Shown here one piece after another: positions 8,081-50,492 of a DNA stretch of 64,000 nucleotides; position 1 is the first letter of the stretch; each line of letters starts with the position of its first letter. The stretch spans positions 1-64,000 of the forward strand of contig JBGGMJ010000188.1 of the NCBI GenBank assembly GCA_041288095.1, given 5' to 3'. The notes beneath the pieces are model-generated. The model had not been told where the DNA came from and searched no databases. It saw only the letters and a program-made list of their open reading frames with translations. This DNA is from Myxococcota bacterium. Its GTDB lineage: Bacteria; Myxococcota; XYA12-FULL-58-9; JALHOP01. The position numbers and the translations under genes are program-made.

Positions 8081-8926
8081 ATGGCCATCAATCGCATCGA
8101 CCAACTCCAGCGCACGACGGCCCTTCCGACCGCTGAAGATTCGCAGGCTGGGCGCTCCGCACGGCTCGAGCTCAACCAGCAGTCGAGCTTCGAGCGCGGC
8201 AGCGACTCCGACTTCGATCCCGCGAACTTCCAGTCGAGCTTCACCGACGACCAGCGTCGCGAAGCGCAGGCGCGCTTCGAGAGCTTGCCAATCGAGGACC
8301 AGGAAGCCGTCGACACCGCGGTCACGAAGGTTTACCTCGGGCTCAGCGGCGTGCGCACCGGTACCACGACCACCGCCGAAGTTGGTGCCTCGCTGGCCGA
8401 AGGCCTCTCGACTTACTCGAACGCGCTCTACGGCGTGCGTGGTTTGCCCGCCGCCAACCGCGTGTCACGCGGAAGCGGTGGCTCGGGCGAAGTCACCGAC
8501 ATCATGGTGCGCGTCATGGGCCGGGTCGAAGACACGGTTGCCCAGTTCGCGATCGACCTCCAGGGCAAGATCAACATGAAGTCCGAGCTGCGCACCCAGC
8601 TCGCCGAAGTTCGCGACATGGTCGCCAACTGGCCCGAGGGCGCGGAGACGCAGACGTTCACCTATACGTCGTACGACGTCGACTCGAGCACCGGTAAGGT
8701 CACCGAGACCGTTCACACCGAAGAGCTGACGAAAGAGCAAGCGATGGCGCTGCAGGAGCGCATGCAGTCGCAGCTCGACACCCTCTCCGACATCACCCAG
8801 ATGCAACAGTTCGAGCTGCAGCAGAAGTATCAGCAGCAGCAGGAAGCCATGCAGACACTGAGCGAAATTCTCCGCTCGATGCATGACACCATGAAGAACA
8901 CCATCGCCAACGTGAAAGCGTCCTAG
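8081..8926 (+). CDS. Hypothetical protein with EspA/SseB/Bsp22-like helical C-terminus
   Basis: No signal peptide, polar leader, coiled coil, and C-terminal [44 protein letters not shown]. The family call is pattern recognition only. Confidence 0.55.
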
Positions 8927-10104
8927 TCCGCGTTCGGCGTCATCACGCACTTCACGCAGCCTTCACGCTTCTCCATGAAGGTGTCGTAGAGGTGCGGCGC
9001 GTCCTCGAGTGAGCCGCGGTGCGTGACGATGAACGACGGATCGATGTCGCCACCGTCGATGCGCGCGAGCAACGGCTCGAGGTAACGGTGGACGTGCGTC
9101 TGACCCGTGCGCAGCGTCAGCCCTTTGTTCATCACCGCGCCGAACGGCATCTTGTCGAGGAAGCCGCCGTAGACGCCCGGGACCGATAGCGTGCCGCCCG
9201 GCCGGCACGCGATCATCGCTTGGCGCAGCGCGTACGGCCGATCCTGCTCGAGCTTCAGCATCTGCTTCACCTTGTCGTAGGCGAACATGAAGCCGGTGCC
9301 GTGCGCCTCGAGCCCGACCGCATCGATGCAGTGGTCGGGTCCGCGGCCGCCCGTGAGTGAGCGCAGCTCGTCGAGCACGTCTACCTCTTCATAGTCGAGC
9401 ACCACGGTAGCGTCGCTCTGACTGCGCGCCATCTCGAGCCGCGCCGGCACACGATCGATGGCGATGACTTGCTCGGCACCCAACATATACGCCGAGCGAA
9501 TCGCGAACTGACCAACAGGCCCACAACCCCACACCGCGACGATGTCTCCCGGCGCGATGCCGCAGTTCTCGGCGGCCATATAACCCGTCGGGAAGATGTC
9601 GGTGAGGAACAGGACCTGCTCGTCGGTGAGCGTGTCGGGCACCTTGAAGCAACCGACGTCGGCATGCGGTACGCGCACGTACTCCGCTTGGCCGCCGGCG
9701 TATCCACCGGTCATGTGCGAGTAGCCGAAGAGCCCCGAGGTCGAGTGGCCGAAGAGCTTCTCGGCCATCCAAGCGTTGGGGTTCGTGTTCTCGCAGAGCG
9801 AGGTGCGGCCGTTGACGCAGTTTTCGCAGTTGCCGCAGGCGATGGTGAACGGCACGACGACACGGTCGCCGACTTTCACGCGTGTCGTCGAGGAGCCAAC
9901 CTCGACGATCTCGCCCATGAACTCATGCCCGAGCACGTCCCCCGACTGCATGCTCGGGATGTAACCGTTCACGAGGTGCAAATCGGAGCCGCAGATCGCG
10001 GTGGCGGTGACACGAACGATGGCGTCGCGTGGATTGACGATACGTGGCTCGGGAATGTCCTCGCAGCGCACGTCCTTGGGACCCATCCAGCAAACGGCTT
10101 TCAT
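8923..10104 (-). CDS. Zinc-dependent alcohol/formaldehyde dehydrogenase (FDH-like MDR)
   Basis: ICGSDLH, GHEFMGE, CxxCxxCx7C, DIFPTGY and GCGPVG motifs. Confidence 0.93.
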
Positions 10105-10640
10105 GGCACGTTCCTCTCCGCCGGCTTCTTCGCCGCGCGCTTCTTCGCGTTGGTCTTCTTGACGTTCTTCACCGCCGCGGCCGCGTCGAGCATGGGCTTC
10201 AAATGACTGCCGGGCTCGGCCTTGGGCTTGTCGCGCGCCGATGGACTCTCGTTGGTGGCGATCTCGCCGGTCTCGGCGAGTTGCTTGAAGCGGCGCAGAT
10301 GCTCCTTGAGCTGGGCACCGGGGTCGAGGCCGGACAAGCCCGAACGCACGGCCGAGAGCCTGCCCATCGGCGCGCTATAGCGGATGAGACCGCGCACCAC
10401 CGTGCCGCGCGTGCCCTCGTCGAAGGCGACCTCCACGTCATCCATCCATACGGGTAGTCGCTCGAAGTCGTTCCACATGGCGCGCAGCTCGTAAGCCGGC
10501 TTGCGGATGGTGACGAAATACTCGGCTTCGATGATCTGATTCGCGCGCCGTGCCACGGCCCTGCGAGCACTATAGGCCGCGATCGCGGACCCCGCCGTTC
10601 CCAGCGCGATACGCCAGGCTACCTTTCTCATCGCTTTCAT
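10101..10640 (-). CDS. SRPBCC/cyclase-like protein, apparently internally shortened
   Basis: [17 protein letters not shown] and [15 protein letters not shown] motifs; Lys/Ala-rich tail. Confidence 0.7.
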
Positions 10641-10661
10641 TTGTTCCCTCGTCAGCGCCGA

Positions 10662-11621
10662 CTAGGCGCCCGAGCCGTCCACCAGCTCGTTGTTGGCCCG
10701 CTCGGCCTCGCGCAACGGCGCTCGCACCCAGCGCGGCAGATCCTTTGTTTCACTCTCGCTGCCCTTCGCTTCGGCAGTGCCGATACCGCCCGGCTTGGGG
10801 AGGGCCCGATCGACCAAGGACAGGAGAATCGCTGTGAGGCTGGGACTGACCGCTTGGGCCAGGACACCGAGCTTCGCGGGCACGCCGAGCACCAGCTCGG
10901 CCTTGCCCCGCTCGAGGGCGTCGACGATGCGTCGCGCCGCCCGGTTCACCTCGATCGAGAGGATCGGCATGGTCGAGGCTGTCGCGAACCAGGCGTACTC
11001 GAGGTCATTCTTTCCCTTGAAGGTGGCGTGCCGCGGGCTGCCGGTGCGCATGAGACCGGGACACACGGTCGTGACGAAGATGCCGTGCTTGCGCAGCTCC
11101 ACACGCAGGCCGCGCGACAAGCCGACGAGCGCGAACTTGCTCACCGAGTAGGGCAAGAGGTGCGGCACGGCGATGCGGCCGCCGACCGACGAGACGTTGA
11201 CGATATGCCCCGAGCCACGCTCCCGCATCGACGGCAGGACGGTGTCGATGAGATGGAGCGGCGCCCAGAGATGGACCTTCATGGCGTACTCGTAGTTGTC
11301 GAGCGTCATGCTCTCCATCGGACCGACCTGGATGATGCCGGCGTTGTTGATAAGGACGTCGATGGGCCCGAGCGCGCTCACCACCTCATGGACCATGTCG
11401 ACGATCTGGCCGGTGTCGGCGAGGTCGCAGGGTACGGCGAAGACGTCACCGAGCTCGGCGGCGACGTGACCGAGCTCTTCGGTGTCGCGCGCCGTGATTG
11501 CTACCTTGGCACCGCGTCGGGAGAGCTCACGCGCGAGACACAAGCCCAGGCCCCGCGAGCTGCCGGTGACCAACACGACCTTGCCTTCAACGCTGACGCG
11601 TCGACGCCAACCGAACGGCAT
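10662..11621 (-). CDS. SDR family oxidoreductase
   Basis: TGSSRGLG, NNAG, YSVSK and CPGLMRT motifs. Confidence 0.92.
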   Translation of the reverse strand: MPFGWRRRVSVEGKVVLVTGSSRGLGLCLARELSRRGAKVAITARDTEELGHVAAELGDVFAVPCDLADTGQIVDMVHEVVSALGPIDVLINNAGIIQVGPMESMTLDNYEYAMKVHLWAPLHLIDTVLPSMRERGSGHIVNVSSVGGRIAVPHLLPYSVSKFALVGLSRGLRVELRKHGIFVTTVCPGLMRTGSPRHATFKGKNDLEYAWFATASTMPILSIEVNRAARRIVDALERGKAELVLGVPAKLGVLAQAVSPSLTAILLSLVDRALPKPGGIGTAEAKGSESETKDLPRWVRAPLREAERANNELVDGSGA

Positions 11622-20386: not shown

Positions 20387-21063
20387 AGATCCTGGTCACC
20401 GGTGGCAGCGGCTTCATCGGCAGAGCGGTGTGCGCTCTAGCGGTCGAGCGCGGTCTCACGGTGACCAGCCTGTCGCGGCACGGACCTTCCCTGCCCACGC
20501 ACACGCCGGTGCTCGCGAAGGTCAGCTGGTTGCGCGGCAGCGTCTTCGACGAGCAAGGCCTCGATGCCGCCCTCCAAGGGGTCGAGGCAGTGGTCCACTG
20601 CGTCGGCATTGGCCGGGAGCGGCCGAGTAAGGACGAGTCGTTCAAGCGGGTGAACGGTGACTCCGCTATCGTGGTCGGCGAGGCCGCCAAGAGAGCCGGA
20701 GTGCGTGCCTTCGTTTTCTTGTCCGCCGGCGAGAAGCCGCCTTGGGCGCATGAGGAGTATCTGAGCTCGAAGCGCCGTGCCGAAGTGGCCATCGCCAAGA
20801 TCTGTGAGCGCTTGGTGGTTCTGCGGCCGGGGCTGGTCTACGGGCCGGAGAAGCGGCTCGCGACCTTCGCCGCTGGTCTCTTGCGCGCCGTCGCGACGGT
20901 GCGGACACCGGGCCCCCGGCTCGAAGCCAACACGCCGGTCTCGGCCGCGACCGTCGCGAGAGCGGTCATGCGCGCGGTGCTCGACCCAAACGCGCGCGGC
21001 GTGGTCGAGCCAGCGCGCATCGCGGGCTTCGCCGAGGTTGCTCTGGCCGTGACGAGCCTTTGA
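20383..21063 (+). CDS. NAD-dependent epimerase / atypical SDR
   Basis: MKILVTGGSGFIG, YLSSKRRAE and LRPGLVYG motifs. Confidence 0.88.
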   Translation: MKILVTGGSGFIGRAVCALAVERGLTVTSLSRHGPSLPTHTPVLAKVSWLRGSVFDEQGLDAALQGVEAVVHCVGIGRERPSKDESFKRVNGDSAIVVGEAAKRAGVRAFVFLSAGEKPPWAHEEYLSSKRRAEVAIAKICERLVVLRPGLVYGPEKRLATFAAGLLRAVATVRTPGPRLEANTPVSAATVARAVMRAVLDPNARGVVEPARIAGFAEVALAVTSL

Positions 21064-21118
21064 GCCGTTTCGGCCGCGCGCTGTGCCTGGCTGTCACCGA
21101 CGCTCCGCCCTGCTTCGC

Positions 21119-21145
21119 GCATCCGGGGCTCACGGTGGTCGATAA
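21119..21145 (+). promoter_or_regulatory. sigma28-like motif
   Basis: GCAT-N15-GTCGATAA, followed by an AAGGAG RBS and ATG 21174. Confidence 0.6.
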
Positions 21146-21173
21146 CCGACTGCACGAACAAGGAGACTTTGGG

Positions 21174-21707
21174 ATGCGTGTTGTAGAAATCAAAGGCGGT
21201 ACCGACCTCAACGCCCTCAAGTGGGCGCTCGCGAATCAGCGCCCCGACCTCGGGTTCAAGCGGAACGAGTTCGCCATCGTGCAGAACTCAAAGGTCTACT
21301 TGGTTCGCGGCGAGGGAGCATCGAAGCTCGAGTCCGGAACCGTGCTCAAGAGCAATGAGCGAACGCTGGACTGCTACGTGAACGAACGCGGCCGCGGTGG
21401 CAGCCTCCTGGGCCAGATGTCACTGTACCTGGGCGGGCTTTTCGGCGGCATGGCGGGCATCGCGTATCCCGCCAAACTGTTGCTTACGGGCGCCGTGGCG
21501 AACGGGGACCTCTTTATCGCCGGCCTCGCGTTGATTGGCGGCGCCGTCGCGGCTTTCCATGCCATTCGATCCATCGTGCCAAACCAGCCGGACGTGAGCG
21601 GAAGCATCATCGCGAACGCCATCGCCCCCAGCGACCTCGTCTATGAGGACTTCAAGGTCGTTCCCCGCGGCGAGAAGCAGCCAGCGCAGGTTGCCACCGC
21701 GGCCTAG
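21174..21707 (+). CDS. Hypothetical protein with a Gly-rich hydrophobic hairpin
   Basis: Good RBS, no signal peptide, two adjacent hydrophobic segments in the C-terminal half. Confidence 0.7.
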   Translation: MRVVEIKGGTDLNALKWALANQRPDLGFKRNEFAIVQNSKVYLVRGEGASKLESGTVLKSNERTLDCYVNERGRGGSLLGQMSLYLGGLFGGMAGIAYPAKLLLTGAVANGDLFIAGLALIGGAVAAFHAIRSIVPNQPDVSGSIIANAIAPSDLVYEDFKVVPRGEKQPAQVATAA

Positions 21708-21737
21708 TGCCCCTGCTGCGGTGACAGGGTGCGCGGC

Positions 21738-21764
21738 GCAACCGCTGCCACGTCGCCGCGATAC
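21738..21764 (+). promoter_or_regulatory. sigma28-like motif
   Basis: GCAA-N15-CGCGATAC upstream of the M1 peptidase. Confidence 0.65.
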
Positions 21765-21827
21765 CCCCCTCCGCGCGCAGCTCCGCTATCCCGGGGCTCG
21801 TCGAGGGGCGGTTCGATGCCTGAGGCC

Positions 21828-23831
21828 ATGGCAGTCTCGCCGGTGCGGCATCAAGGTACGTCTCCGCAGATCGTGGACGCGACCGATTCTCCGCGATTGG
21901 CGACAGCGGGCGTCACCACCGACGCGACGGTGCCGCCGCGGCGGTTGACGCAAGGTCTCTCGCGCCCGCCACTTGCCGCTGCCCCGTCCCCGCCCGGTAG
22001 TGAGCCGCCCACGTTACTGGGCGCGCTGCACGTGGCGCTACGCAACGTCAGCTCGGCCAGCGGGCGCGTGCGTGACGCCGACTTCGACGCGCTCACGCAG
22101 CGCGTCGCCGCCATCGATGCCCTGAACGACCCACAGCTCGCGGCGGCCGGTCGCACCATCGTCGGCCGTCTCGCTGACCGCAGAGTCGATGCGGTCGACG
22201 TCGATGATTTCCTGGTGGCGATAGCGACCATCAAAGCACGTGAGCCGCGCGGGCCGAGCATTCCGGCGCTGCGCAACCTGCTGGCGCAAGTCGCGTTAGC
22301 CGCCGTCAACGTCAGCCCCACCCACCTGGATTTCGAGCTCGACATGCGGGCCGTCCGCGACAGCGGCGTCTCGGACTTTCCCGCCGTGAGTCGCATCACC
22401 CTTCCCCCCGGTGAGCATGCGCAGCCCCTGCGCCTCGCGGTGGCTGACCGCCTGAGCGTGCGTGAGGTGCTGGCCGACGGCGAGCGCGCGCGGTTTCGCG
22501 TGAGCCGCGGCCGTCTCGAGGTCGAGGCCCCGCGGGCGCGGACCCTCGAAGTACGCCACACTGTGCGCGCCCATTTCATCGACACCGATGAGGACTTCGC
22601 GACCGCCAGCGGACTCATCGTCGACCGGCGCGATCCGGCGAACATCCACATCACCTCGCTCACCTGGCCCTACAACGCCGATCAGCTCTTCCCGGCGAAC
22701 CCGGATCCGCCGGCGGTGATGCACGCCGCCGCGCGCCTGCTGGTGCCCGACGACTTCACGACCGTCGGAGCCGAGGTGACGACTCCCGTCCCTGCGTACA
22801 GCGTCGCCGTGCGCGCCTCGAACAACCTCAAGGTCATCGAGGGTCCGACCACCGCCGGGGGCGTCAAGCTCAATTTCCATGTATACCGCGATGGCGGACT
22901 GCGCCCGGACGGGGACTTCACCGCCGCGTTGCGCGATATCGGCCGGGGGCTCGACGCGGTGGCGGCGATCTTGGGCACGCCCTACCCGGACGGCGTCATC
23001 AACTTCGTGCAGACACCGAACCCCTTCGGTGGCATGGAGCACCAGGGCATGCCGGCGATCAACGACTCCGCTATCGAAGACAATAGTCGCGTGCCGGACA
23101 TCGTGAAGGTGCCTCTGCACGAGGCGGTGCACGGCTACTTCGGCAACGGCCGTGCGATCGACGGCTGGGCGAACTTCACCATGAGCGAAGGATTGACGCA
23201 GTACCTGACCTACCGCGGCGTCGAGGCGAGCCTCGGGGTCGCGAGCAGCGCGGAAGCGTGGCAGCGCTCGCGTGAAGTCCTCGCCCGCACGCTCGCCGGC
23301 AAGAAGCAGCCGCTCGTCGGCGCGGCCGAGGGCGATGTCTACGATTCATTGAACGCGGTGCCCTACGAGCTCGGTGCCTGGATCTTGCGCATGGCCGAAG
23401 AGCGCGTTGGCCGCGAGCAGCTGGACGCCGTCCTCGGCGAGCTGGCGCGGGCGAAGCCCGAACGCCCTCTCTCGGTCGAGGAATGGGTCCGCTACCTCAC
23501 CCTGCGCACCGGGGTCGACTTCGCGCCGGTCTACGCCGGCTGGGGAAACATTGGCGGCGTCCCGCAATACGACGTCGACGTGCGGCGCGACGCAACGCGA
23601 GTCGAGCTGCTCGTGCGACGCCTCGGAGTGCGTCTGCCCAGTGGCACGAAGGTCCCGGTCGTCGTGAGCGGCCAGAACGGCGAGCGCGCGACGGTTCGCG
23701 TGAGTCTCAGCGACGGCGAGTCGATCGACGGCGGTTTGCGTCAGAGCTTCGACGTTGGTTTTCCCGTCGCCGGGGTCGCGATCGACCCCGAGCACAGCGT
23801 ATTGGCGATTGTTCGCAGTCGCGAGCCCTAG
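21828..23831 (+). CDS. M1 family aminopeptidase with a disordered N-terminal extension
   Basis: GGMEH exopeptidase motif, HEAVH-x18-E zinc motif and PYELG. Start is at 21816 or 21828. Confidence 0.85.
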   Translation: MAVSPVRHQGTSPQIVDATDSPRLATAGVTTDATVPPRRLTQGLSRPPLAAAPSPPGSEPPTLLGALHVALRNVSSASGRVRDADFDALTQRVAAIDALNDPQLAAAGRTIVGRLADRRVDAVDVDDFLVAIATIKAREPRGPSIPALRNLLAQVALAAVNVSPTHLDFELDMRAVRDSGVSDFPAVSRITLPPGEHAQPLRLAVADRLSVREVLADGERARFRVSRGRLEVEAPRARTLEVRHTVRAHFIDTDEDFATASGLIVDRRDPANIHITSLTWPYNADQLFPANPDPPAVMHAAARLLVPDDFTTVGAEVTTPVPAYSVAVRASNNLKVIEGPTTAGGVKLNFHVYRDGGLRPDGDFTAALRDIGRGLDAVAAILGTPYPDGVINFVQTPNPFGGMEHQGMPAINDSAIEDNSRVPDIVKVPLHEAVHGYFGNGRAIDGWANFTMSEGLTQYLTYRGVEASLGVASSAEAWQRSREVLARTLAGKKQPLVGAAEGDVYDSLNAVPYELGAWILRMAEERVGREQLDAVLGELARAKPERPLSVEEWVRYLTLRTGVDFAPVYAGWGNIGGVPQYDVDVRRDATRVELLVRRLGVRLPSGTKVPVVVSGQNGERATVRVSLSDGESIDGGLRQSFDVGFPVAGVAIDPEHSVLAIVRSREP

Positions 23832-23860
23832 TCCCGGGTGCCGACGTGACGACGCGCCAG

Positions 23861-23887
23861 GCAACGCTCGGACCTAGCCTCCGATAA
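23861..23887 (+). promoter_or_regulatory. sigma28-like motif
   Basis: GCAA-N15-TCCGATAA, ending 9 nt before ATG 23897. Confidence 0.7.
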
Positions 23888-23896
23888 CGCCGCGCC

Positions 23897-26742: not shown

Positions 26743-26762
26743 GCACGGGAGTATAACCGCTT

Positions 26763-30922: not shown

Positions 30923-31003
30923 GGCTAAGCTACACGAGCACACATCGTGCGGGTCACCCCCGGCACCCGACGACGTGTCAGGGTAGCCATGCGCCGAGCG
31001 CTC

Positions 31004-31366: not shown

Positions 31367-31456
31367 GATGGGCTCCGTGGTTCGAGAGGGCCTTCGCGGG
31401 CCCTCGGTTCAGCCCCCTGGTCTAGCGGCGGCGAGCCGGGCTAGCTTGAAGAGCTC

Positions 31457-31476
31457 CTGGAGATTTGCTGGAGATT
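31457..31476. promoter_or_regulatory. Tandem direct repeat, candidate wHTH operator
   Basis: CTGGAGATT twice at 11-bp period between the divergent cupin and regulator genes. Confidence 0.45.
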
Positions 31477-31488
31477 GCAGAACCGCCC

Positions 31489-33039: not shown

Positions 33040-33046
33040 GCAGGCC

Positions 33047-34291: not shown

Positions 34292-34303
34292 GCCCCTCGA
34301 TAC
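34277..34303 (+). promoter_or_regulatory. sigma28-like motif
   Basis: GCAA-N15-CTCGATAC, ending 8 nt before ATG 34312. Confidence 0.65.
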
Positions 34304-34311
34304 TGTCCGCC

Positions 34312-34848
34312 ATGGATATCCAGTTTCGTCGCGCCATTGGCGCGCTACCTGTCGTCGCCGCGTCATCGTCATCATCAGCGCGCGAGCGTGCGCTCCCCGC
34401 GCCGCCGCCATCGCCGTTGCCCGCAAGCTCTCGCTTTGCGCAACTGGACCGCGCCAAGGCGCCAGCGCTGGTCAGCGCCGGCCGGGATGCGGCCCTCGGC
34501 GCCCACCCGCTGGTCGGCAACTGGGTCATGCACATTTACCTCACCGACGAGCAGGGCAAGCCCGTGCTCTTTGACGACCTCCTGCGGGTCGAACAAGGCC
34601 CCAACGGCCTCACCGGCGAGCTCGAGGTCCCCGACCGCTTCAAGGCGAAGCTTCGCACCGTCGAGACCTCCGGCGACAAGTTCTACATCGACATCGAGGC
34701 CGTCGAGCGCGGCAACAAGATCGAAGTGAAGTACGAAGGGGTCTTCCACCCGACCAAGGACACGTTCATCGGCTTCGCCCACGTGCTGCCGGGGAACGAG
34801 CTCCTCGGCGGCTTCGTCGGCCAGCGACTAGCGTCCGCGACGCGCTAA
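34312..34848 (+). CDS. Hypothetical protein: disordered leader plus beta-rich domain
   Basis: S/P/A-rich first ~60 aa, then LVGNWVMHIY... with alternating beta strands. Confidence 0.75.
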   Translation: MDIQFRRAIGALPVVAASSSSSARERALPAPPPSPLPASSRFAQLDRAKAPALVSAGRDAALGAHPLVGNWVMHIYLTDEQGKPVLFDDLLRVEQGPNGLTGELEVPDRFKAKLRTVETSGDKFYIDIEAVERGNKIEVKYEGVFHPTKDTFIGFAHVLPGNELLGGFVGQRLASATR

Positions 34849-34871
34849 AATAGAGCGTACCGGTCGCTTCG

Positions 34872-35966
34872 CTAGTTGGCCGCGACCGGTCGCTGCACCT
34901 GCGCGCCGCCTTCGTCACGCTCGTCGCCGTTGGCGATGACCGCCGCTTGCGCCTCGCGTACGCGCTCACGCATCTCGACGCGCCTCAGGTTCACCTCGCC
35001 GTCGCGCGTGACACGCGAGAACAGCGTCACCTGCGGCTGGAACAAGAAGAGCAGCCAGAGCTTGGTGTACGAGTTGTAAGACTGGAGCGTGTCGTACATC
35101 TCGGGCGCCAGCTTCTTGAGCGCCGGCAAGCGGTGCCACGGCACGAACGGAAAGTCGTGGTGCTCGTTATGGTAGCCGACGTTGAGCGCCAGGATGTTCG
35201 CCGGTCCGTAATAGCTGCCGGTCTCCTGGTTGTGCTCCCAGGTGAGGTAGTGCTCTTGGATCCAGCGCGCGCCGGCGGGATGCGGGCCGATGCTGAAGAT
35301 GAGCGACGCGCCCATGTAGAGGATCGCCATCGGGCCAAAGAAGTAGAGGATGGCGGCGTCGAACGCGAACGAGAGGGCGATGTTGGTGATGACGCCCGGG
35401 GTCACGAACGAGATGTTCCCCGCCTTCGAGAAGCGAATGACGCGCAGCGATTGGAAGATGGGGAAGAAGAGCTGCCAGAGGAGCTTGCCGAAGATGGACG
35501 AGCCGATGAGCTTCGCCTCCCAGTGCGAGGGCAGGTCGGCATCGAGCAGGTAGTCACCCTGAAACTTGTGGTGCTTCAGGTGATAGATGCGGAACGATTC
35601 CGCGGAGGGCACGAGCATCGGCAGGTTCGCGAGAATGCCGAAGGCGCGGTTGGTCCACTTCTCTTTGTTGATGAGGTTGTGCGTCGCTTCATGGATGAGG
35701 ACCCACAAACAATGGGTCGCCCAAGCGCCGACGACCCACGCGACCGCGAGCACGAGCCACCACGGTTGATTGCGCAAGGCGAAGGCGAGACCGACCTGCA
35801 AAGCGACGACGCCGCTGACGATCAGCGCCGAGAGCGGCTGGCGGCCGAAGAGCTTACGAACTTCGGGGTGATCCTCGAGGATCTTGCGCGCCCGGTCGCG
35901 GTGGGGCTCGGGGTACTCGACGTGGGTGAACTTCTTGCCACGGAGGGGGGCAGCGGCAGTTTCCAT
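34872..35966 (-). CDS. Sphingolipid delta(4)-desaturase/C4-hydroxylase-like (DES1/DEGS) fatty acid desaturase
   Basis: N-terminal EPHRDR..IL..HPEV.KLFG; His boxes HEATH, HLKHH and HNEHH; ET.SYYG..N.L..NVGY. Confidence 0.85.
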   Translation of the reverse strand: METAAAPLRGKKFTHVEYPEPHRDRARKILEDHPEVRKLFGRQPLSALIVSGVVALQVGLAFALRNQPWWLVLAVAWVVGAWATHCLWVLIHEATHNLINKEKWTNRAFGILANLPMLVPSAESFRIYHLKHHKFQGDYLLDADLPSHWEAKLIGSSIFGKLLWQLFFPIFQSLRVIRFSKAGNISFVTPGVITNIALSFAFDAAILYFFGPMAILYMGASLIFSIGPHPAGARWIQEHYLTWEHNQETGSYYGPANILALNVGYHNEHHDFPFVPWHRLPALKKLAPEMYDTLQSYNSYTKLWLLFLFQPQVTLFSRVTRDGEVNLRRVEMRERVREAQAAVIANGDERDEGGAQVQRPVAAN

Positions 35967-43435: not shown

Positions 43436-43470
43436 AGCTCCGCATGACACGCGGTCGCTCCCTCTAAGGC

Positions 43471-43497
43471 GCACCACCACGGTCGCCGGACCGATAT
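43471..43497 (+). promoter_or_regulatory. sigma28-like motif
   Basis: GCAC-N15-ACCGATAT upstream of a GGAG RBS and GTG 43530. Confidence 0.55.
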
Positions 43498-43529
43498 ACC
43501 GAGGACACAAGGGAACTTCGGAGCCACTG

Positions 43530-43799
43530 GTGAGCCTCACGCCGATTGCAAAGACGCCTCTCGCAGCTACTGCTAACCCGCGCTGCGATTGCGCCACCGA
43601 CGCTCAGCCCACGGTAAAGGCCGAGGCCCCCACGGTCGCCCCTTCCGCACCGACTCCGCCTCTTCACAAGCTCGCCATGAACGCCACCTCCGGGGCCCTC
43701 ATCACATTCGGCAGCATCGTCCTGCTCGGAACCCCCGAGATCACCGGCATCGTCGGCGGTCTCATCACGTTCGCGGCGCTTCAGGCGTTCACCAAATAG
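43530..43799 (+). CDS. Small protein with P/T/A-rich leader and C-terminal hydrophobic hairpin
   Basis: RBS; disordered first half; two short hydrophobic helices; stop overlaps the MFS start. Confidence 0.6.
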   Translation: MSLTPIAKTPLAATANPRCDCATDAQPTVKAEAPTVAPSAPTPPLHKLAMNATSGALITFGSIVLLGTPEITGIVGGLITFAALQAFTK

Positions 43800-45103
43800 T
43801 GCTCGAGCCACCGAAGATCCGACAAGTCATCTTGGCGTCGTCGGTCGGCACGCTCTTCGAGTGGTACGACTTCTATCTCTACGGCTCGCTCGCGGCTTTC
43901 TTCGGCGGCCTGTTCTTCCCCAAAGGTCACGACACCGCGGCGTTTCTCGCGAGTCTTGCGACCTTCGGTGCGGGCTTTGCGGTGCGCCCGTTCGGCGCGC
44001 TCGTCTTCGGACGTCTCGGTGACCTCGTCGGTCGCAAGCACACGTTCCTCGTCACCATCGTGATCATGGGTGTGTCGACGGCGGCGATCGGCTTGCTGCC
44101 GACATACGAGAGTGTTGGTTTGCTCGCGCCGATTCTGCTCGTGACCCTGCGACTCGCACAGGGGCTCGCGCTCGGCGGTGAATACGGGGGGGCCGCGACC
44201 TACGTTGCCGAGCACTCGCCGGATGATCGACGCGGCTACTACACGAGCTTCATCCAGACGACGGCGACGCTCGGGTTCTTCGTGTCACTCGCGGTCATTC
44301 TCACGGTGCGGCTCGCTTGCGGTGACGAAGCTTTCACGAGCTGGGGCTGGCGCGTCCCGTTCCTGTTGTCGTTCGTGTTGCTGGGCGTCTCCGTCTACAT
44401 CCGGCTCAAGCTGCGTGAGTCGCCGGCCTTCTTGAAGCTCAAGGCCGACAACAAGCTCTCGAAGAATCCGCTCAAGGAGAGCTTCACCAATCCGGTGAAC
44501 CTCAAATACGTCTTGCTCGCGCTCTTCGGCGCCACTGCCGGCCAAGGCGTCGTCTGGTACACGAGCCAGTTCTATGCGTTGTTCTTCTTGCAGAGCACGC
44601 TCAAGGTCGATTTCGTCACGTCGTACGTGCTCATCGGCATTGCTCTCGCGATCGGGACACCGTTCTTCGTGGTGTTCGGCCACCTCTCGGATCGCATCGG
44701 ACGCAAACCGATCATCTTGGTAGGGTGCGCTTTAGCGGCCGTGCTTTACTACCCGCTGTTTCGCGCATTGGCGGTAGTCGCGGCTCCGCCCGATATCAAC
44801 ATCTTCGCGACGCTCGCCATCCTCGTCGTCTTCGTGCTGCTCGTGACCATGGTTTACGGGCCCATCGCGGCGTTTCTCGTCGAGCTGTTCCCGACGCGCA
44901 TTCGCTACACATCGATGTCGCTGCCCTATCACATCGGCAACGGCGTCTTCGGTGGCTTCATGCCGCTGATTGCGGCGAGCATGACCGCCGCCACCGGCAA
45001 CATCTACGCGGGTCTCGCTTATCCCTGCTTCATCGCGCTCACCACGGTGATTGTTGGTGCCATTGGAATTCGGGAATCCAAGGAGCACCGACTCATTTCG
45101 TGA
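43799..45103 (+). CDS. MFS transporter, metabolite:H+ symporter (MHS) family
   Basis: ASSVGTLFEWYDFYLY, GDLVGRK, QGLALGGEYGG, SDRIGRK and ELFPTRIRYT motifs. Confidence 0.93.
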   Translation: MLEPPKIRQVILASSVGTLFEWYDFYLYGSLAAFFGGLFFPKGHDTAAFLASLATFGAGFAVRPFGALVFGRLGDLVGRKHTFLVTIVIMGVSTAAIGLLPTYESVGLLAPILLVTLRLAQGLALGGEYGGAATYVAEHSPDDRRGYYTSFIQTTATLGFFVSLAVILTVRLACGDEAFTSWGWRVPFLLSFVLLGVSVYIRLKLRESPAFLKLKADNKLSKNPLKESFTNPVNLKYVLLALFGATAGQGVVWYTSQFYALFFLQSTLKVDFVTSYVLIGIALAIGTPFFVVFGHLSDRIGRKPIILVGCALAAVLYYPLFRALAVVAAPPDINIFATLAILVVFVLLVTMVYGPIAAFLVELFPTRIRYTSMSLPYHIGNGVFGGFMPLIAASMTAATGNIYAGLAYPCFIALTTVIVGAIGIRESKEHRLIS

Positions 45104-48100
45104 GCCAAGGCGTAAGCTCGAGGATAGCTCCCGAGCTTGCAAACCCGGCGTCACCGAGCTCGCCGCCGGTGTCGTCGCCCCAGCACTTCAAGACTCCCTG
45201 AGTCGTCAGGCCGCAGGCCGAGCGCTTGCCGCGGGCGATGGCGCTGTAGGTCGTTCCTGAATCGACGGCTTGCGGTGCCTGTGCCGACGCGAAGCCGCCG
45301 TTGCCGATCTGGCCTTGGCCTCCGCCTCCCCAGCAGCGCACCAAGCCCGACGTCGTGAGGCCGCAGCTACCGATGCTCGCTATGCCGCCGTTGTTGAAAC
45401 GCGTCAGCGCCACCGCGGCGTACTGGGCGGCGCTGTCGATGGGAGTCGGTTGCGGGCGCGGCGTCGTGGTTCCGTCGCCGAGCTGGCCAACGCCGTTGCT
45501 CCCCCAGCACTTGAGCTGACCACCGACGACCACCGCGCATGTATGGGCGCTCCAGGCATCGCACCCGACTCCCACGTGCGAGTACGCCACACCGCTATCG
45601 ACGACAGTCGGCGTGGTCGTCGGCGTCACAGAGGTCGTGCCGTTGCCCAACTGACCGTAGTCGTTCGCGCCCCAGCACTTGAGCACGCCGTTGGTAGTGA
45701 CGGCGCAGGTGTGCGTGCACGCGGCGCTCACTTGAGCGTAGGTTGTGCCGACGTCGATGGCGAGGGGCGCTGACACCGTCGCGGTTCCGCCGCTGCCAAC
45801 CTGGCCCGACGCGTTCGTGCCCATGCACTCGAGCCCTGCGAGGTCGGTAATGGCGCACGCGTGCCCGTTGCCCACGGCCACTGCGACGTACCGTGACGCG
45901 GACGAGATGACGTGCGGCTCGAGCGGCGCGAACGGGCCAGAGCCGGCGCAGGTGAGCTGACCCGCGGCGACGCCACAGGTCACCTGCTCGCCGAGCGCGA
46001 AGGCGGTGTAGCCGCTTCCCCAAGATGCCGCGAGCGCCGGCCAGCCACCCCAACAATAGGGTTGTCCGCTCGAGAGGACACATCCATGTCTCGTGTGTGG
46101 GCCGAGGGACAGCTGGTCGTAAACGCGCGCGTCGTCGATCACCGCCGGCGCGCGCCGATAGGTGAGCACACCATCACCGAGCGACGCCGGCCCGTAGCCG
46201 GCGAGGAAACAACCGACGGCTCCAGCAGCGTCGCTGCCGCACAAGGCACGCTCGCTGCCCGAGAGCGTCGTCCAGGTGCGGCCGCCCTGTTGTGGAATGG
46301 GCTGACTGGCAAAACATCGCAGCTCCGCGCCCGTGGTCACTCCACAGGTCGAAAACAGAAGGCCGGCGTGAATGTCGGCATAGCTCGTCCCGGTGTCGGC
46401 GGTGACGGGGGTCAGTTTCTGAGTCGTCGACCCGTCTCCGAGCTGGCCGGATGAGTTGTAGCCCCAGCACCGCGCCACGCCGGTGCTGGTGACGCCGCAG
46501 GTGCGCATCGTCCCCGGCGACACCATCTGGTACGTCGTGCCGCTGTCGATGGTGACCGGCGTTTGCTGGTCGGTGGTGGAGTTGTTGCCGACCTGACCGT
46601 TCGAGTTCCAACCCCAGCAGCGGAGTGCGTTCGCGGTGGTGATGCCGCACGTCGTGTGCATGAACGTCCGCAGGTCGCGGTAGCTGACGCCGCTATCGAT
46701 GGTGAGGGGCAGCGGAGCCGAGGCGCTCGCCGCGTTTCCTAGTTGCGCGAACGAGTCGCCGCCCCAACATTTCACCGTGCCGCCTGTCGTCAGCGCGCAG
46801 CTGTGATAGCGGCCGACGGCGGCACGCTGATAGCTCGTGCCCAGGTCGATGGGCACCGGGCTCGCGCGCTGCTGGCCACTGCCGTCGCCGAGCTGTCCGC
46901 CCGCGTTACTGCCCCAGCACTTGAGCACGCTACCTTGCGTGACACCGCAGGCGTGACCTTCGCCGACGCTGACATCCGAGTAGGGCACTCCGCCATCGAT
47001 GACGACGGGTTGCGGGCGATCGATGGTCGTCCCGTCTCCCACTTGGCCGACGTCGTTGATGCCCCAACACACCAGTGTCCCGTCGCTCAAGACGGCGCAG
47101 CCATTGGTTGCCTCGAAGTTCATGGCATGGCGACTCACGGTGAGGGGCGCACCGCTCGAGCGGATGCCCAGACGTGTCGTCGCCGTGTCGTCAATCCTGA
47201 CGCGAGGTGAGTCGACCGCGATTGCGCGCACCTCCATGCGAGCCCACCACGTCGTTCCGGGACGTGCATCGAAGACGTCGAACGTGACCGGCGCGGTGAC
47301 CTGGCCGGCGGGAATGGTGATCTCTCGTCCGTTTTCGAGATCGTGGTCGAGCCCGTACACAGCGTCTCCGAGCACCTCCAGCGTGACGTGCACGTCTTGC
47401 AGCCGCGTCGCGGCTAGGCGCAGCGTGAGCGTTTGCGCGCCGCTCGTCGACGCCACGATGCCGTCACGCTCGACGAAGCCGATAGTCGTCCACGCTTCGC
47501 TCACGGCGAGAGTGATCGCCCGCGCGGTCATGGGCGTCACGTGACCGACAGCATCGCGAATCCAGAGGTAGACGGCTTTGGGTCCGTTCGCGCCCGGGAG
47601 TTGCGTCGATGTCAGCGAGGTCAACGGAAGCCAACCGGCGTCGGTGAAGACCGGGCTCGCGGAGAGACGTGCCTCCATGGGACTCGCGTCGCTCGCGTTG
47701 ATCGCCACGGTGACTTCCGCGGACGCCGTGCTCGCCGCGCCTCCCGCCAGCAAGAAGTCTTCGAGCACGGGAGGCTGGCCATCGATGCCGAAGGGCGTCG
47801 ACACCACGGGCGCTGCCGTGTTGCCCACGGCGTCGGAGAGGCTCACTCGCACGAGTGCTTGGCTCGCATCGGTCGCCGGCACCTGCCAGTCAGTGCCGCT
47901 AACGTGGTCGTTCATCGCGGTCGCACTGGCCTGCACCGGGGTGAGAAGACTCCAGCTCGCCCCGCCATCGACGGAGACCTCGACGGCAAAGCTCGCGAGC
48001 GGCGCGACGTGCGGTTCTGTCGTCGACCATGTCAGTGAAAAAGGAGCGGCCCCGGCAACGAACGCCGGCGGCGCCCGCACCCAACGCAAGTTGGGAGGAG

Positions 48101-48476
48101 TTGTATCGAGGGTGACCTGGGTGGTGCCCGGCGCATCGGAGATCGCGCCACCGGCGTCACGGCCCCACACCGCTATCGTGTACAGGCCGTCAGCGCCGCT
48201 GAGCGTGTGCCCCGCCGTGCCCGCGCACGCGACCCAGCGCGGGTCGTTCGCTGCCGGCCGCGCCGTGCTCTGTGTCACCAGCATGCTGCCGTCAGGGGAG
48301 CGGCAAACGATGCTCAACTCGACCTCCCGTGACGCCGTCAGTCCGGGGGTGCTCAGGGTCACCGCGGGTGCCGAGCCACCAGCTTGCAGGCCATCGTCGA
48401 GAAAGCCGCTGCGCGAACAAGCGACGGAGGGCGCCAGCACGCAGATCAGGGCACCCGCCACCAGCCGACGCGCCAT
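45093..48476 (-). CDS. RCC1/BLIP-II repeat lipoprotein with Ig-like and Calx-beta-like domains
   Basis: SVA-C lipobox; DTTPP Ig-like modules; more than ten HxC...G.L.CWG.N..GQLG.G repeats. Confidence 0.88.
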   Translation of the reverse strand: MARRLVAGALICVLAPSVACSRSGFLDDGLQAGGSAPAVTLSTPGLTASREVELSIVCRSPDGSMLVTQSTARPAANDPRWVACAGTAGHTLSGADGLYTIAVWGRDAGGAISDAPGTTQVTLDTTPPNLRWVRAPPAFVAGAAPFSLTWSTTEPHVAPLASFAVEVSVDGGASWSLLTPVQASATAMNDHVSGTDWQVPATDASQALVRVSLSDAVGNTAAPVVSTPFGIDGQPPVLEDFLLAGGAASTASAEVTVAINASDASPMEARLSASPVFTDAGWLPLTSLTSTQLPGANGPKAVYLWIRDAVGHVTPMTARAITLAVSEAWTTIGFVERDGIVASTSGAQTLTLRLAATRLQDVHVTLEVLGDAVYGLDHDLENGREITIPAGQVTAPVTFDVFDARPGTTWWARMEVRAIAVDSPRVRIDDTATTRLGIRSSGAPLTVSRHAMNFEATNGCAVLSDGTLVCWGINDVGQVGDGTTIDRPQPVVIDGGVPYSDVSVGEGHACGVTQGSVLKCWGSNAGGQLGDGSGQQRASPVPIDLGTSYQRAAVGRYHSCALTTGGTVKCWGGDSFAQLGNAASASAPLPLTIDSGVSYRDLRTFMHTTCGITTANALRCWGWNSNGQVGNNSTTDQQTPVTIDSGTTYQMVSPGTMRTCGVTSTGVARCWGYNSSGQLGDGSTTQKLTPVTADTGTSYADIHAGLLFSTCGVTTGAELRCFASQPIPQQGGRTWTTLSGSERALCGSDAAGAVGCFLAGYGPASLGDGVLTYRRAPAVIDDARVYDQLSLGPHTRHGCVLSSGQPYCWGGWPALAASWGSGYTAFALGEQVTCGVAAGQLTCAGSGPFAPLEPHVISSASRYVAVAVGNGHACAITDLAGLECMGTNASGQVGSGGTATVSAPLAIDVGTTYAQVSAACTHTCAVTTNGVLKCWGANDYGQLGNGTTSVTPTTTPTVVDSGVAYSHVGVGCDAWSAHTCAVVVGGQLKCWGSNGVGQLGDGTTTPRPQPTPIDSAAQYAAVALTRFNNGGIASIGSCGLTTSGLVRCWGGGGQGQIGNGGFASAQAPQAVDSGTTYSAIARGKRSACGLTTQGVLKCWGDDTGGELGDAGFASSGAILELTPWLTK

Positions 48477-48514
48477 GTCATGAGTGTAGCTTGGCGACCC
48501 TGACGGGGCGACAG

Positions 48515-48541
48515 ACAACGCGCCCCACGGCTCGCCGATGA
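48515..48541 (+). promoter_or_regulatory. sigma28-like motif
   Basis: ACAA-N15-GCCGATGA upstream of ATG 48580. Confidence 0.5.
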
Positions 48542-48579
48542 TGCCTCCGCGCTTTCGCGCGTTTTCTTGGGGTCGCGAC

Positions 48580-49182
48580 ATGAACATCGGCGGAATTGGA
48601 CAGGTTGGACACGTCAACGAGGCGGCCCGGGCCGAAGTGGCGACCGCAAGTGCGCGGGCACAACCGGTCGTCATCGGTTTTGGTCCGATGACCGAAGCCG
48701 CGCGCGACAATGGCTTGGCGATGCCGCGCGCTGGTGTGAGCGCTGCCCGTCCGCCGATGATGCGAGTCGCGGGCGGGGAGGGACACCTTCTCGCCGAAGC
48801 GCGTGCGCATTTCGTGCGCGAACGTCCCGAGGTGGTGAGCGCGCTGCGGCGCGCCTATGCGGACATCACTCAGCCCGTGGTCGACGAGATCGCCGACGAG
48901 TGGGTTGCGCGCTCGCTGCGCCGCTATAGCGCACTACTCGACGGGCGCAACGACGGGCTTCAGTACCTGACGCCCTCGGGGTTGCTTCTCACCATCGCTT
49001 TCGAGGGTCAGCGGCCAGAGGGCGACCCGGTGCGCGTGCTCGCCGAGGGGCACCAAGCGAGGTTCATCGAATCGCTTGCGCGCAACGGCGAGTCCACCGA
49101 GGAGGCCACCTTCCAGGCGCGGACGATTGGAGCCCGCCTCGCGCGCAGCACGGCGGGATGGGAAGCGGAGCTAGGTCGCTAG
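48580..49182 (+). CDS. Hypothetical protein with low-complexity leader
   Basis: MNIGGIGQVG... Ala-rich leader followed by a helical domain; no signal peptide. Confidence 0.65.
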   Translation: MNIGGIGQVGHVNEAARAEVATASARAQPVVIGFGPMTEAARDNGLAMPRAGVSAARPPMMRVAGGEGHLLAEARAHFVRERPEVVSALRRAYADITQPVVDEIADEWVARSLRRYSALLDGRNDGLQYLTPSGLLLTIAFEGQRPEGDPVRVLAEGHQARFIESLARNGESTEEATFQARTIGARLARSTAGWEAELGR

Positions 49183-50094
49183 TCAGCTGCGCGACCCTTG
49201 TTTGTTGAAGAGATCGGCGATGACCAGAAAGCGGCGCAACGCGTAGAGCGAGCGATGCCACATCGTCACGAGGAACTCGGAGGGCACGGCCACGGTGTTG
49301 CAGACCAGGGCAACGCGGGGGAGTAGGCCCGAGGTATCCGGAGCCAATGAGAGCATGATGGTGAACGCGTCTTCGGCTTTCTGATCGATGAAATAGCGGT
49401 CGCCGGCGTCGTTCAGCTTGCGGCCTTCTAGATCGTAGAGGCTCGCGAGGGCTGCATTGAGCGGCGCGGGGTCGGCGAGGTCTCCGAACGCGACACGCAC
49501 GCTGTCCATGATGAAGCAGGCGTGGGACACGAGGGCCGGATCCCGCGCGGTCGTTTGCAAGATGAACTTGCGAACGTTCTCGATGAGCTCCTCGCGCGAG
49601 CGAAAACCGGGCATCAAGGTGTTGAAAAAGCGATAGAGGGCGAGCGACGTACTGGCCCAGTCGTAGCTACGCAAAGCCGAGTAGACCGTCGTGTAGAGGC
49701 TGTTGCTGTCGGCTTCGGCCTTGGAGATGTATCCGTTGATCTCGTAGCCCTCGAGGATCTGCCGCTGCGGAGCCTTGCCGGGCTGACCGGTGCGGATGAT
49801 GATCTGCGTCACGTCGTTCTTGAGGGCGCTGCGGATGTACGAGCAGAGCTCGAGCCCAGCGGTGTCGGTCTCCATGATGACATCGACGATAGCCAGAGCG
49901 ATGATGGTCGAATCCGCGAGGCCCTGCAGGTACTCGAGCGCGGCGCCTTTGTTCGCAAAGGTGGTGATCTGGAGACGCGCGCCGGCGTAATTCAGACGCT
50001 TGAGCACGAGGTCGCTCACCGCGAGAACGCTCGGATCGTCGTCGACGATCATGACATTGAAGTATTCGCGCCTGAACATGCGAGCCTCGGCCAT
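49183..50094 (-). CDS. Response regulator receiver protein without a recognisable output domain
   Basis: VMIVDDD, IVDVIMETDTAGL, IIIRTGQPG.AP and Y.INGYISK motifs. Confidence 0.85.
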   Translation of the reverse strand: MAEARMFRREYFNVMIVDDDPSVLAVSDLVLKRLNYAGARLQITTFANKGAALEYLQGLADSTIIALAIVDVIMETDTAGLELCSYIRSALKNDVTQIIIRTGQPGKAPQRQILEGYEINGYISKAEADSNSLYTTVYSALRSYDWASTSLALYRFFNTLMPGFRSREELIENVRKFILQTTARDPALVSHACFIMDSVRVAFGDLADPAPLNAALASLYDLEGRKLNDAGDRYFIDQKAEDAFTIMLSLAPDTSGLLPRVALVCNTVAVPSEFLVTMWHRSLYALRRFLVIADLFNKQGSRS

Positions 50095-50145
50095 AGCTTC
50101 GGGTGGGGACAGCCGTCATGTCAAACCCGAGGGGCCGCACTAGCC

Positions 50146-50173
50146 ACACCAGGGGGCCGGGCCGCGCCGATAC
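50146..50173 (+). promoter_or_regulatory. sigma28-like motif (N16 variant)
   Basis: ACAC-N16-GCCGATAC, ending 7 nt before ATG 50181. Confidence 0.5.
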
Positions 50174-50180
50174 ACTAGGT

Positions 50181-50492
50181 ATGCGGGTGCGTGAAGTTGC
50201 GACCAAACCGGTGATCTCCCTGGCGGAATTCGCTAGGGCAGCGGCGGATCCCGACGCCAAAGCCGGCTCATTGGGCCAGCGCGCTCGCGCCCACGTGGGG
50301 ACCCTGTCGCGGATAGTCCATCCGGCGCCTTCGGGCCCCGCGGCGCCCGTGCTGGACCTTGCTCCCGCCCTGAAAAACGCCCGTCAGAATGCCGCGATGC
50401 GCGCCCTAGTCGAAGCCATCGAGGCCGCCGTGCTGCCGCCGCCCCAGAGTAGCTACGTCATCGACCCGAGCCACGTTTTCTACGTCTCCTAA
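50181..50492 (+). CDS. Small Ala/Pro-rich hypothetical protein
   Basis: ORF flanked by the motif and a candidate terminator. Confidence 0.5.
   Translation: MRVREVATKPVISLAEFARAAADPDAKAGSLGQRARAHVGTLSRIVHPAPSGPAAPVLDLAPALKNARQNAAMRALVEAIEAAVLPPPQSSYVIDPSHVFYVS

Follow-up and report, generated by a model that had tools for sequence, protein, structure and literature searches.

In Pseudomonas syringae and Erwinia, HrpL is an extracytoplasmic function (ECF) sigma factor that is encoded together with type III secretion system (T3SS) genes, and its hrp box precedes the apparatus operons as well as scattered, strain-variable effector genes. The sigma-28 factor FliA, which has FlgM as its partner, recognizes the consensus TAAA-N15-GCCGATAA of the flagellar late genes. 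In Bordetella, BtrS is the sigma factor for a non-flagellar T3SS, and BtrA is a secreted anti-sigma factor. The accessible sections of two reports on Myxococcus xanthus describe a non-flagellar system, T3SS*, that is without secretin, needle and translocon and is needed for prey lysis; these sections still term the T3SS* effectors 'potential', name no substrate and describe no sigma factor or promoter link (PMC12075869, PMC10849154). A further report, likewise accessible in part, notes that FliO is retained in the myxobacterial T3SS* (PMC12403147). No description of a FliA- or sigma-28-linked myxobacterial T3SS, of an effector promoter motif or of a substrate list was found in the open literature. 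We analyzed a 64,000-nucleotide (nt) stretch of DNA from an uncultured soil Myxococcota bacterium (assembly GCA_041288095.1, contig JBGGMJ010000188.1, positions 1 to 64,000), hereafter the window, which is contig C188 of the genome G000 (assembly of 5.85 Mb, completeness estimate of 90%). A preliminary description, made from the sequence alone, had proposed that seven motif-bearing genes of the window encode proteins with disordered leaders that are exported by a T3SS or flagellar-type apparatus. Our reading, which we hold with a probability of about 0.5, is that the motif marks the regulon of a sigma factor encoded in a T3SS cluster and that the leader-bearing proteins of this regulon are cargo of the T3SS.

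The motif shared by the window genes, GCAAC-N16/17-CGATA, was strongly overrepresented in the G000 genome. Exact GCAAC-N-CGATA sites numbered 133 at N16, 60 at N17 and 10 at N15, and the 133 sites at N16 compared with 6 for the reversed-pattern control; the shorter form CAAC-N16-CGATA occurred at 164 sites versus 18 in mononucleotide shuffles. Downstream of 172 of the 193 exact N16/N17 sites, a same-strand open reading frame (ORF) of at least 60 aa with a high G+C content at third codon positions (GC3) began within 3-134 nt. ATG was enriched approximately twofold at 8-12 nt past the motif, and 31 of the 43 ATGs located 6-13 nt past it opened frames of at least 100 codons, a geometry that suggests that a subset of the motif transcripts is leaderless. 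The variants in front of three window genes were enriched 4- to 9-fold over the reversed control, with 36 sites versus 4 for GCACC-N16-CGATA (gene at 43530), 29 versus 7 for ACAAC-N16-CGATG (48580) and 17 versus 4 for ACACC-N17-CGATA (50181). In contrast, ACAAG-N14-CGATA, the variant in front of the gene at 8081, was not enriched (10 sites versus 6). When the enriched variants were counted, several hundred sites were present per genome. Judged from sequence, the shared motif is a real promoter.

A sigma factor of 294 aa is encoded at the T3SS cluster of G000, and its top family was FliA/WhiG (TIGR02479, 163.7 bits). The preliminary description had pointed to sigma-28; this guess came close with regard to the family, but the score lies under the family cut-off of 189.6. 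On contig C92, an exact CAAC-N16-CGATA heads the operon at 35188-38085 (minus strand), which encodes a protein termed p185, a 138-aa tetratricopeptide repeat (TPR) protein, a protein termed p159 and the sigma factor, and a one-mismatch motif lies 112 nt upstream of the sctI-like gene and sctJ. The same two motif positions recur in the genus mates. On contig C41 of G000, an exact motif precedes the gene that follows the SycD/LcrH-like chaperone gene next to sctU. We then surveyed the sigma locus in one genome per species, which gave 39 loci from uncultured metagenome-assembled genomes (MAGs) labeled Myxococcota, Bdellovibrionales or Deltaproteobacteria, with no Myxococcus record among them. In 34 of these 39 loci, the sigma gene was immediately followed by sctI-like, sctJ and FliG-like genes, and a motif with at most one mismatch lay between sigma and sctI in 22 of the 34 (14 exact), so that co-regulation with the apparatus is indicated by a motif upstream of sctI-sctJ in G000 and in these 22 related loci. 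A motif was also present within 700 nt upstream of the p185-TPR-p159-sigma operon in 19 of 31 loci, and the motifs of the surveyed loci lay mostly on the gene strand (54 versus 17 on the opposite strand). The sigma gene adjoins sctI in most of the order's other lineages. In the genus of the window, an insertion of ~11 kb (C92:24471-35154) separates the two; it holds a set of resistance-nodulation-division (RND) efflux genes (OEP, two AcrB, HlyD) and a further gene of 496 aa.

A second FliA-like sigma factor is encoded at C127:21744-22568 (L204:4745-5572) and matched TIGR02479 with 166.1 bits, also under the cut-off of 189.6. Its gene is followed by a gene for an 80-aa FlgM-like anti-sigma-28 protein (L204:5612-5854; PF04316, 31.3 bits, cut-off 25), and its orthologues at 40% identity or more were found in the genus and in G005, G006 and G012. 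Motif counts followed the distribution of the T3SS-cluster sigma gene, though not perfectly: the genomes of the genus had 116-168 sites (control 6-8), order genomes with an orthologue of that sigma factor mostly had 23-66, and most genomes of the phylum without either sigma factor had 20 or fewer. We infer that the sigma factor of the T3SS cluster, rather than the second FliA-like one, reads the motif. An RpoH gene next to sctV was rejected as the source of the motif's sigma factor, as it encodes an ordinary sigma-32. The N-terminus of the p159 protein is polar and variable, and its C-terminal domain is helical and conserved; the protein matched no Pfam or PDB sequence and was therefore rejected as a known anti-sigma factor, and we regard it as a candidate secreted anti-sigma factor or co-factor.

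Compared with the described circuits, the one found here resembles HrpL in that an alternative sigma factor is encoded with the T3SS and its box heads an apparatus operon and scattered, variable genes, which makes the box usable for listing candidate cargo. Unlike the ECF factor HrpL, the sigma factor matches FliA/WhiG best, the motif is GCAAC-N16/17-CGATA, and the regulon is several times larger; additionally, the machine is without a recognizable secretin or needle, and the hosts are uncultured Myxococcota. FliA is similar in the best-matching sigma family, in the resemblance of the -10 element CGATA(A) to GCCGATAA, in the FlgM-like gene after the second sigma gene and in being an autoregulated sigma factor that controls T3SS-exported proteins, where export in the present case is inferred. 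It differs in that no flagellin or rod genes were found here, the -35 element is GCAAC rather than TAAA, and the targets are mostly orphans and hydrolases. The likeness to Bordetella BtrS/BtrA consists of a T3SS-dedicated sigma factor with possible coupling of transcription and secretion, the p159 gene preceding the sigma gene; however, p159 matched none of the known families, and its binding to the sigma factor is hypothetical.

As the preliminary description had noted, the window itself contains no T3SS genes; a search of the whole genome located those of a non-flagellar T3SS on other contigs. SctV on contig C31 reached 850.8 bits against the hrcV model TIGR01399 (cut-off 692.25), and SctU on C41, whose gene adjoins that of the SycD/LcrH-like TPR chaperone, reached 361 bits in Pfam and 338 bits against TIGR01404, under the cut-off of 358. 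The cluster on C92 encodes sctI-like, SctJ, FliG-like, SctL, SctN, SctO, FliK-like, SctQ, FliO, SctR, SctS and SctT proteins. Among these, the FliP, Bac_export_1 and Bac_export_3 matches of the SctR/S/T set as well as FliH/SctL, the YscO-like SctO and YscJ_FliF (SctJ) scored above the Pfam cut-offs, SctQ was slightly above its cut-off (101.8 versus 100.8 bits), and SctN was just under (601 versus 604.75 bits). The Flagellin_N and Flg_bb_rod models, both of which matched four control genomes, had no match in the 90% complete G000; the T3SS of G000 is therefore non-flagellar, and flagellar export was rejected. The HrpJ gatekeeper model had no match in G000, but it had none in the control genomes either. 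A type VI secretion system (T6SS) was also rejected as an alternative route, since the sheath model (VipB) found no match in G000 at this completeness.

The T3SS cluster (C92:2885-24182) retains flagellum-like parts, namely FliO, a FliG-like gene and a FliM domain in SctQ. Its gene order is interrupted by a Kup potassium transporter, a GNAT, a protein with an HD domain and a protein of 779 aa in which DUF4781 and a weak match to RelA/SpoT were seen. The T3SS core genes that were searched are present in one copy each in G000, through loss or the 90% completeness, while G001, G002 and G003 each hold two SctV genes, the second located ~2-3 kb from a third type of FliA-like sigma factor. Against the accessible descriptions of the M. 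xanthus T3SS*, the system of G000 is alike in being non-flagellar, in yielding no T3SS-grade secretin and needle matches below threshold only, and in keeping FliO, and a role in prey lysis would fit a hydrolase-rich cargo. It differs in its other, uncultured lineage and in the presence of a SycD/LcrH-like chaperone.

To describe the regulon, we compared 166 distinct motif proteins of at least 80 aa with a background of 4,563 called genes. A hydrophobic N-terminus was found in only 8.4% of the motif proteins versus 28% of the background (Fisher p 1e-9), and in 15.7% versus 39% when every possible start was allowed. When only proteins lacking a hydrophobic N-terminus were compared, the summed share of Ser, Thr, Pro and Gln in residues 2-51 was 27.9% for the motif proteins versus 22.1% for the background (p 3e-11), and the same region of the motif proteins was poorer in hydrophobic and in charged residues. 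No Pfam family was assigned at 1e-5 to 91 of 120 motif genes (drawn at random from 161 eligible ones) versus 37 of 108 non-motif genes from nine random 20-kb stretches (p 2e-10). Only 47 of the 166 proteins have any paralogue; therefore, the set is diverse rather than composed of a few expanded families, and a within-genome paralogue test of signal swapping was uninformative. The domains recognized in the regulon include two subtilases, trypsin, M24, M64, gamma-glutamyltransferase (GGT), GH3 and SLT transglycosylase, as well as serpin, adenosine deaminase and polyhydroxybutyrate depolymerase, and the domain often begins only at residue 50-120. No Sec signal was found in the first 130 residues of the regulon enzymes without a hydrophobic N-terminus; the subtilases, M64 peptidase, SLT transglycosylase, serpin and GH3 protein were all signal-less over this length. 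We also observed an exact motif (C23:8182-8207) at a Flp/Fap pilin gene (C23:7871-8122, minus strand), the neighbors of which include no recognizable Tad genes.

Within the window, the seven N-termini quoted in the preliminary description were all reproduced by translation, and Pfam bore out the domains that it had named, with Peptidase_M1 found in P0002 and PD40 together with Kelch in P0003. The remaining five listed proteins matched no Pfam family, apart from a sub-threshold SseC match in P0001. The label 'motif-bearing' holds with an exact motif for three genes and with an enriched variant for three more; it fails for the gene at 8081. The first exact motif (21738..21763, plus strand) lies 52 nt before the ATG at 21816, which is in frame and four codons upstream of the start at 21828 given earlier. 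From this ATG, P0002 (21816..23831, plus strand; 671 aa in its public record) is a divergent metallopeptidase of the M1 family that bears ~55-60 aa of polar leader and lacks a Sec signal. The next exact motif (23861..23886, plus strand) ends 10 nt before the ATG of P0003 (23897..25960, plus strand), a PD40 and Kelch double propeller with an 82-aa polar leader, and the third (34277..34302, plus strand) ends 9 nt before the ATG of P0004 (34312..34848, plus strand), both in leaderless geometry. A further motif-headed gene, absent from the earlier list, lies at 26763..27602 on the minus strand, with its exact motif at 27627-27652 on the same strand; it encodes 279 aa with a weak DUF6782 metallopeptidase-like match and an N-terminus that is not hydrophobic.

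The variant-headed genes lie further downstream, all on the plus strand. GCACC-N16-CGATA (43471..43496) stands 33 nt before the 43530 ORF (43530..43796), which opens with GTG and encodes only 88 aa, with a polar first half rich in Pro, Ala and Thr and a hydrophobic C-terminal hairpin. Its hydrophobic C-terminal half has a coding-type GC3 of 0.87, while the overlapping extension of the frame of a major facilitator superfamily (MFS) transporter does not, and its product is probably a small membrane protein. ACAAC-N16-CGATG (48515..48540) stands 39 nt before the ATG of P0005 (48580..49182; 200 aa; N-terminus MNIGGIGQVG), and ACACC-N17-CGATA (50146..50172) stands 8 nt before that of P0006 (50181..50492; 103 aa; N-terminus MRVREVATKP). 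Neither belongs to a known family, and the neighbors of P0005 in a language-model atlas, a YopR-like cluster among them, were at chance level only. The statement that the listed leaders have no hydrophobic core was true of six of the seven, in which the maximum 11-residue Kyte-Doolittle mean over residues 2-40 ranged from -0.36 to 1.25. The exception was P0004, in which FRRAIGALPVVAAS, scoring 1.92, comprises a twin-arginine-like motif and, after it, a moderately hydrophobic stretch. P0002 and P0003 are among the regulon proteins with a polar leader and without a Sec signal, and P0004, P0005, P0006 and the 43530 product probably carry such leaders as well.

The comparison with homologues revealed that leaders stand where relatives have Sec signals, as was found for P0003, for P0004 and for the regulon GGT, which is encoded on another contig. 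Among the 120 best homologues of P0003, which are ~45-73% identical and of which several come from Bdellovibrionota, 99 carry a hydrophobic Sec-type signal of ~20 residues directly before a conserved (L/M)VYMRE block; at this place, P0003 has 82 polar residues. P0009, a homologue with 71% identity, retains a lipoprotein-type signal. In the G003 orthologue, an exact motif lies 12 nt before the ATG of a 66-residue leader; the two leaders have diverged beyond alignment, and the mature parts are 73% identical. The public record of this orthologue, P0008, when set against L201:2903-3550, begins at an internal Met (MIFMRE) and omits the leader, and such leaders are probably under-annotated in MAG proteomes. 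For P0004, 31 homologue representatives with a single domain were counted, after five multi-domain rows and the query had been set aside; 22 of them pass the Sec threshold, and three more are signal-like below it. The AlphaFold2 (AF2) model of P0004 placed residues 1-66 without secondary structure, at a predicted local distance difference test (pLDDT) score of 50-69, and residues 69-172 in a confident 8-stranded lipocalin-like β-barrel. The regulon GGT has 62 polar residues where 104 of 119 homologues bear a signal. P0002 has one relative in the collections (58% identity), which also has a long non-Sec leader that is unalignable to that of P0002. The non-hydrophobic, disordered N-terminus typical of T3SS substrates was present by hydropathy, by composition and in the AF2 models of P0004 and P0001.

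We propose that the motif is the promoter of the FliA-like alternative sigma factor of a non-flagellar T3SS cluster in an uncultured order of Myxococcota. In addition to the operon in which it is encoded and the apparatus operon sctI-sctJ, this factor appears to transcribe a regulon that comprises ~170 or more genes in each genome, mostly orphans, and many of the products begin with a polar, disordered leader of 50-90 residues that is rich in Ser, Thr, Pro and Gln and without a Sec signal. In the families that could be compared, this leader occupies exactly the place of the relatives' Sec signal; most likely, it routes the protein to the export gate of the T3SS, so that the regulon would be the machine's cargo set, made up of hydrolases and uncharacterized proteins that may plausibly act on prey or competitors. 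The promoter, its link with the T3SS cluster, the lack and replacement of Sec signals and the location in variable islands are observed, whereas the leaders as export signals and the T3SS as exporter are predicted from sequence features.

Several observations weigh against this proposal. A look-up of RNA runs that contain the window sequence listed none. With regard to the machine, no T3SS-grade secretin (SctC) was found among the three secretin genes of G000, which encode PilQ (440 bits), an unclassified protein whose highest SctC score, 90.9, falls short of the cut-off of 238, and a protein of 898 aa. Needle matches in G000 were sub-threshold only, the best (PF09392, 25.5 bits, cut-off 29.4) being a 271-aa protein on C196 that ends in IVQNIR; therefore, the outer-membrane route is not visible. 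With regard to the promoter, 12 of the 34 loci have no motif with at most one mismatch before sctI, and in G005, which has 54 sites, the sigma factor of the T3SS cluster is absent and the second FliA-like one alone is present. With regard to the proteins, ~8-16% of the regulon bear Sec or lipoprotein-type N-termini, PanB, a DEAD helicase, glutathione peroxidase and homoserine dehydrogenase are cytoplasmic-looking members, P0001 is outside the regulon, and P0004 has the twin-arginine-like signal. The gene calls and the signal test were also crude, in that they relied on filtering by GC3, on the first start codon and on a threshold of hydropathy. Finally, GC3 was 0.71-0.75 in leaders and 0.83-0.91 in mature parts, and codon statistics alone are therefore no proof of translation. 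The effector reading of the preliminary description accordingly stands in part: the checks that it named refuted nothing, but an injected effector exceeds the evidence, with no recognizable secretin or needle.

A tenable but less probable explanation is that the sigma regulon is merely co-expressed with the T3SS in a predation, stress or developmental program, that most products are intracellular or leave by another unrecognized route, and that the leaders are disordered linkers or regulatory tails. Regulon membership alone shows no export, and the apparently cytoplasmic enzymes, the Sec and lipoprotein-type members, the Flp pilin gene and the T3SS to which no secretin or needle can be assigned would all fit such a program; several hundred sites per genome, variants included, are also many for one secretion system. 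However, loss of the Sec signal would suffice for retention, yet three unrelated families have each acquired 60-85 additional polar residues in its place; the composition of the leaders is also unlike that of other signal-less proteins. The subtilases, M64 peptidase, SLT lytic transglycosylase and GGT also have no obvious cytoplasmic role, and no T6SS sheath was found that could offer another signal-independent route.

The leaders could instead be untranslated, with the true starts downstream and the proteins ordinary, as the public annotation of P0008 implies with its start at MIFMRE inside the conserved block. Open frames easily arise at 65% GC, and GC3 is lower in the leaders than in the mature parts. 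We nevertheless consider this very improbable: in both G000 and G003, 9-12 nt separate the end of the exact promoter from the leader ATG, three of the window genes have 8-12 nt between promoter end and ATG, and 31 of the 43 ATGs at 6-13 nt past the motif open at least 100 codons. Moreover, downstream starts would cut away the region in which homologues bear a Sec signal and would leave the propeller, barrel and GGT domains without any signal. There is also no hydrophobic segment within 130 residues in the regulon enzymes without a hydrophobic N-terminus. For P0004 alone, the N-terminus may be a twin-arginine translocation (Tat) or weak Sec signal, which would make the protein a periplasmic lipocalin-like barrel with a Pro-rich linker. 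Its sequence FRRAIGALPVVAASSSSSARER combines a twin arginine with a stretch of moderate hydrophobicity (1.92) and a basic c-region, a loose Tat pattern is matched by FRRAIG and the ALPVVAAS after it (hydropathy 1.69-1.92), and the homologues are Sec-exported. We judge a Tat or Sec signal improbable, since the regulon shows no enrichment of Tat-like N-termini (3 of 166 versus 180 of 4,563), the leader extends over 66 residues, and P0004 shares with P0003 the exact leaderless promoter layout.

P0001 (8081..8926, plus strand; 281 aa) differs from the other listed proteins. It was found in 20 of 21 genomes of the order and in none of 19 others, and its N-terminus (MAINRIDQ..., MTVQRID...) is conserved, unlike the leaders. 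The motif look-alike ACAAG-N14-CGATA upstream of it (8014..8037, plus strand) is lost in the genus mate G002, and the motif was absent upstream of 12 P0001 orthologues; together with the lack of enrichment of this variant, this led us to reject P0001 as a member of the regulon. The AF2 model revealed disorder over the N-terminal 49 residues and, further on, two long helices (residues 134-182 and 218-280) with a β-hairpin between them. Needle proteins typically end in IIQNxK/R. The P0001 family ends in TI(A/N/R)N(V/L)KA, and a paralogue on C46, which has a motif variant 72 nt upstream, ends in IIQNVKA. Needle-family matches were obtained for 2 of 12 orthologues, at a weak E-value of 0.0028 or weaker, and the C-terminus appears weakly needle- or translocator-like. 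Foldseek gave no match at E ≤ 0.001, its best weak rows being pore formers of the ClyA family (NheA, MakE), and VIA-align gave generic coiled-coil matches only (Z ≤ 8.2, IpaB at 7.6); both sets of scores are below what counts for helical proteins. We regard an axial, needle-like or translocator-like role of P0001 in the T3SS as a lead rather than a finding.

A synteny comparison with genus mates (77-87% DNA identity) revealed two variable islands, with breaks of synteny located exactly around the candidate genes. The first (21046..34894; 13.8 kb) is missing at the syntenic site of both G001 and G002 and holds P0002, P0003, P0004 and the 26763-27602 gene with four exact motifs. The second (43436..50510; 7 kb), also not at the syntenic site in either genome, holds the 43530 ORF, the MFS transporter, an RCC1-repeat lipoprotein, P0005, a response regulator and P0006. 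Six of the seven listed genes are therefore strain-specific island cargo. Directly upstream of P0004 in the first island, we found genes at 32987-34291 and 31465-33039 for a matrixin-like (M10) peptidase and an OmpR-type winged-helix regulator with TPR repeats. In the second island, the RCC1-repeat protein (45093-48476, minus strand; ~1,130 aa) is encoded divergently from P0005; the listed ORF ran too long, and from the likely start the protein has a lipoprotein signal (MARRLVAGALICVLAPSVAC). We also observed a fatty-acid desaturase at 34872-35966 (minus strand) with an N-terminal sphingolipid delta-4 desaturase (Lipid_DES) domain, a combination unusual for a bacterium.

A promoter that marks the apparatus operon, the sigma gene of the cluster and a gene set provides a concrete, ranked candidate list for a myxobacterial T3SS, and the leader genes offer first concrete candidates for the cargo of the needle-less myxobacterial machines. 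The rule of motif plus non-Sec leader extends this list to dozens of MAGs, and since public annotation hides at least one leader through an internal-Met start, such repertoires are easily missed. Beyond this, we put forward, as a speculation more likely wrong than right, that a secretion-coupled FliA-type sigma circuit in a needle-less T3SS cluster built cargo sets of ~170 to more than 400 proteins per genome, by replacement of Sec signals with disordered leaders and by placing one promoter on the genes of fast-turning islands, and that the P0001 family could be the missing axial, needle or translocator-like subunit. The swaps of Sec signals for leaders are natural experiments in the re-routing of proteins between export pathways, and the occurrence of a FliA-like sigma factor, a FlgM-like gene, FliO and a FliG-like gene in an organism without a flagellum bears on the origin of the injectisome from flagella.

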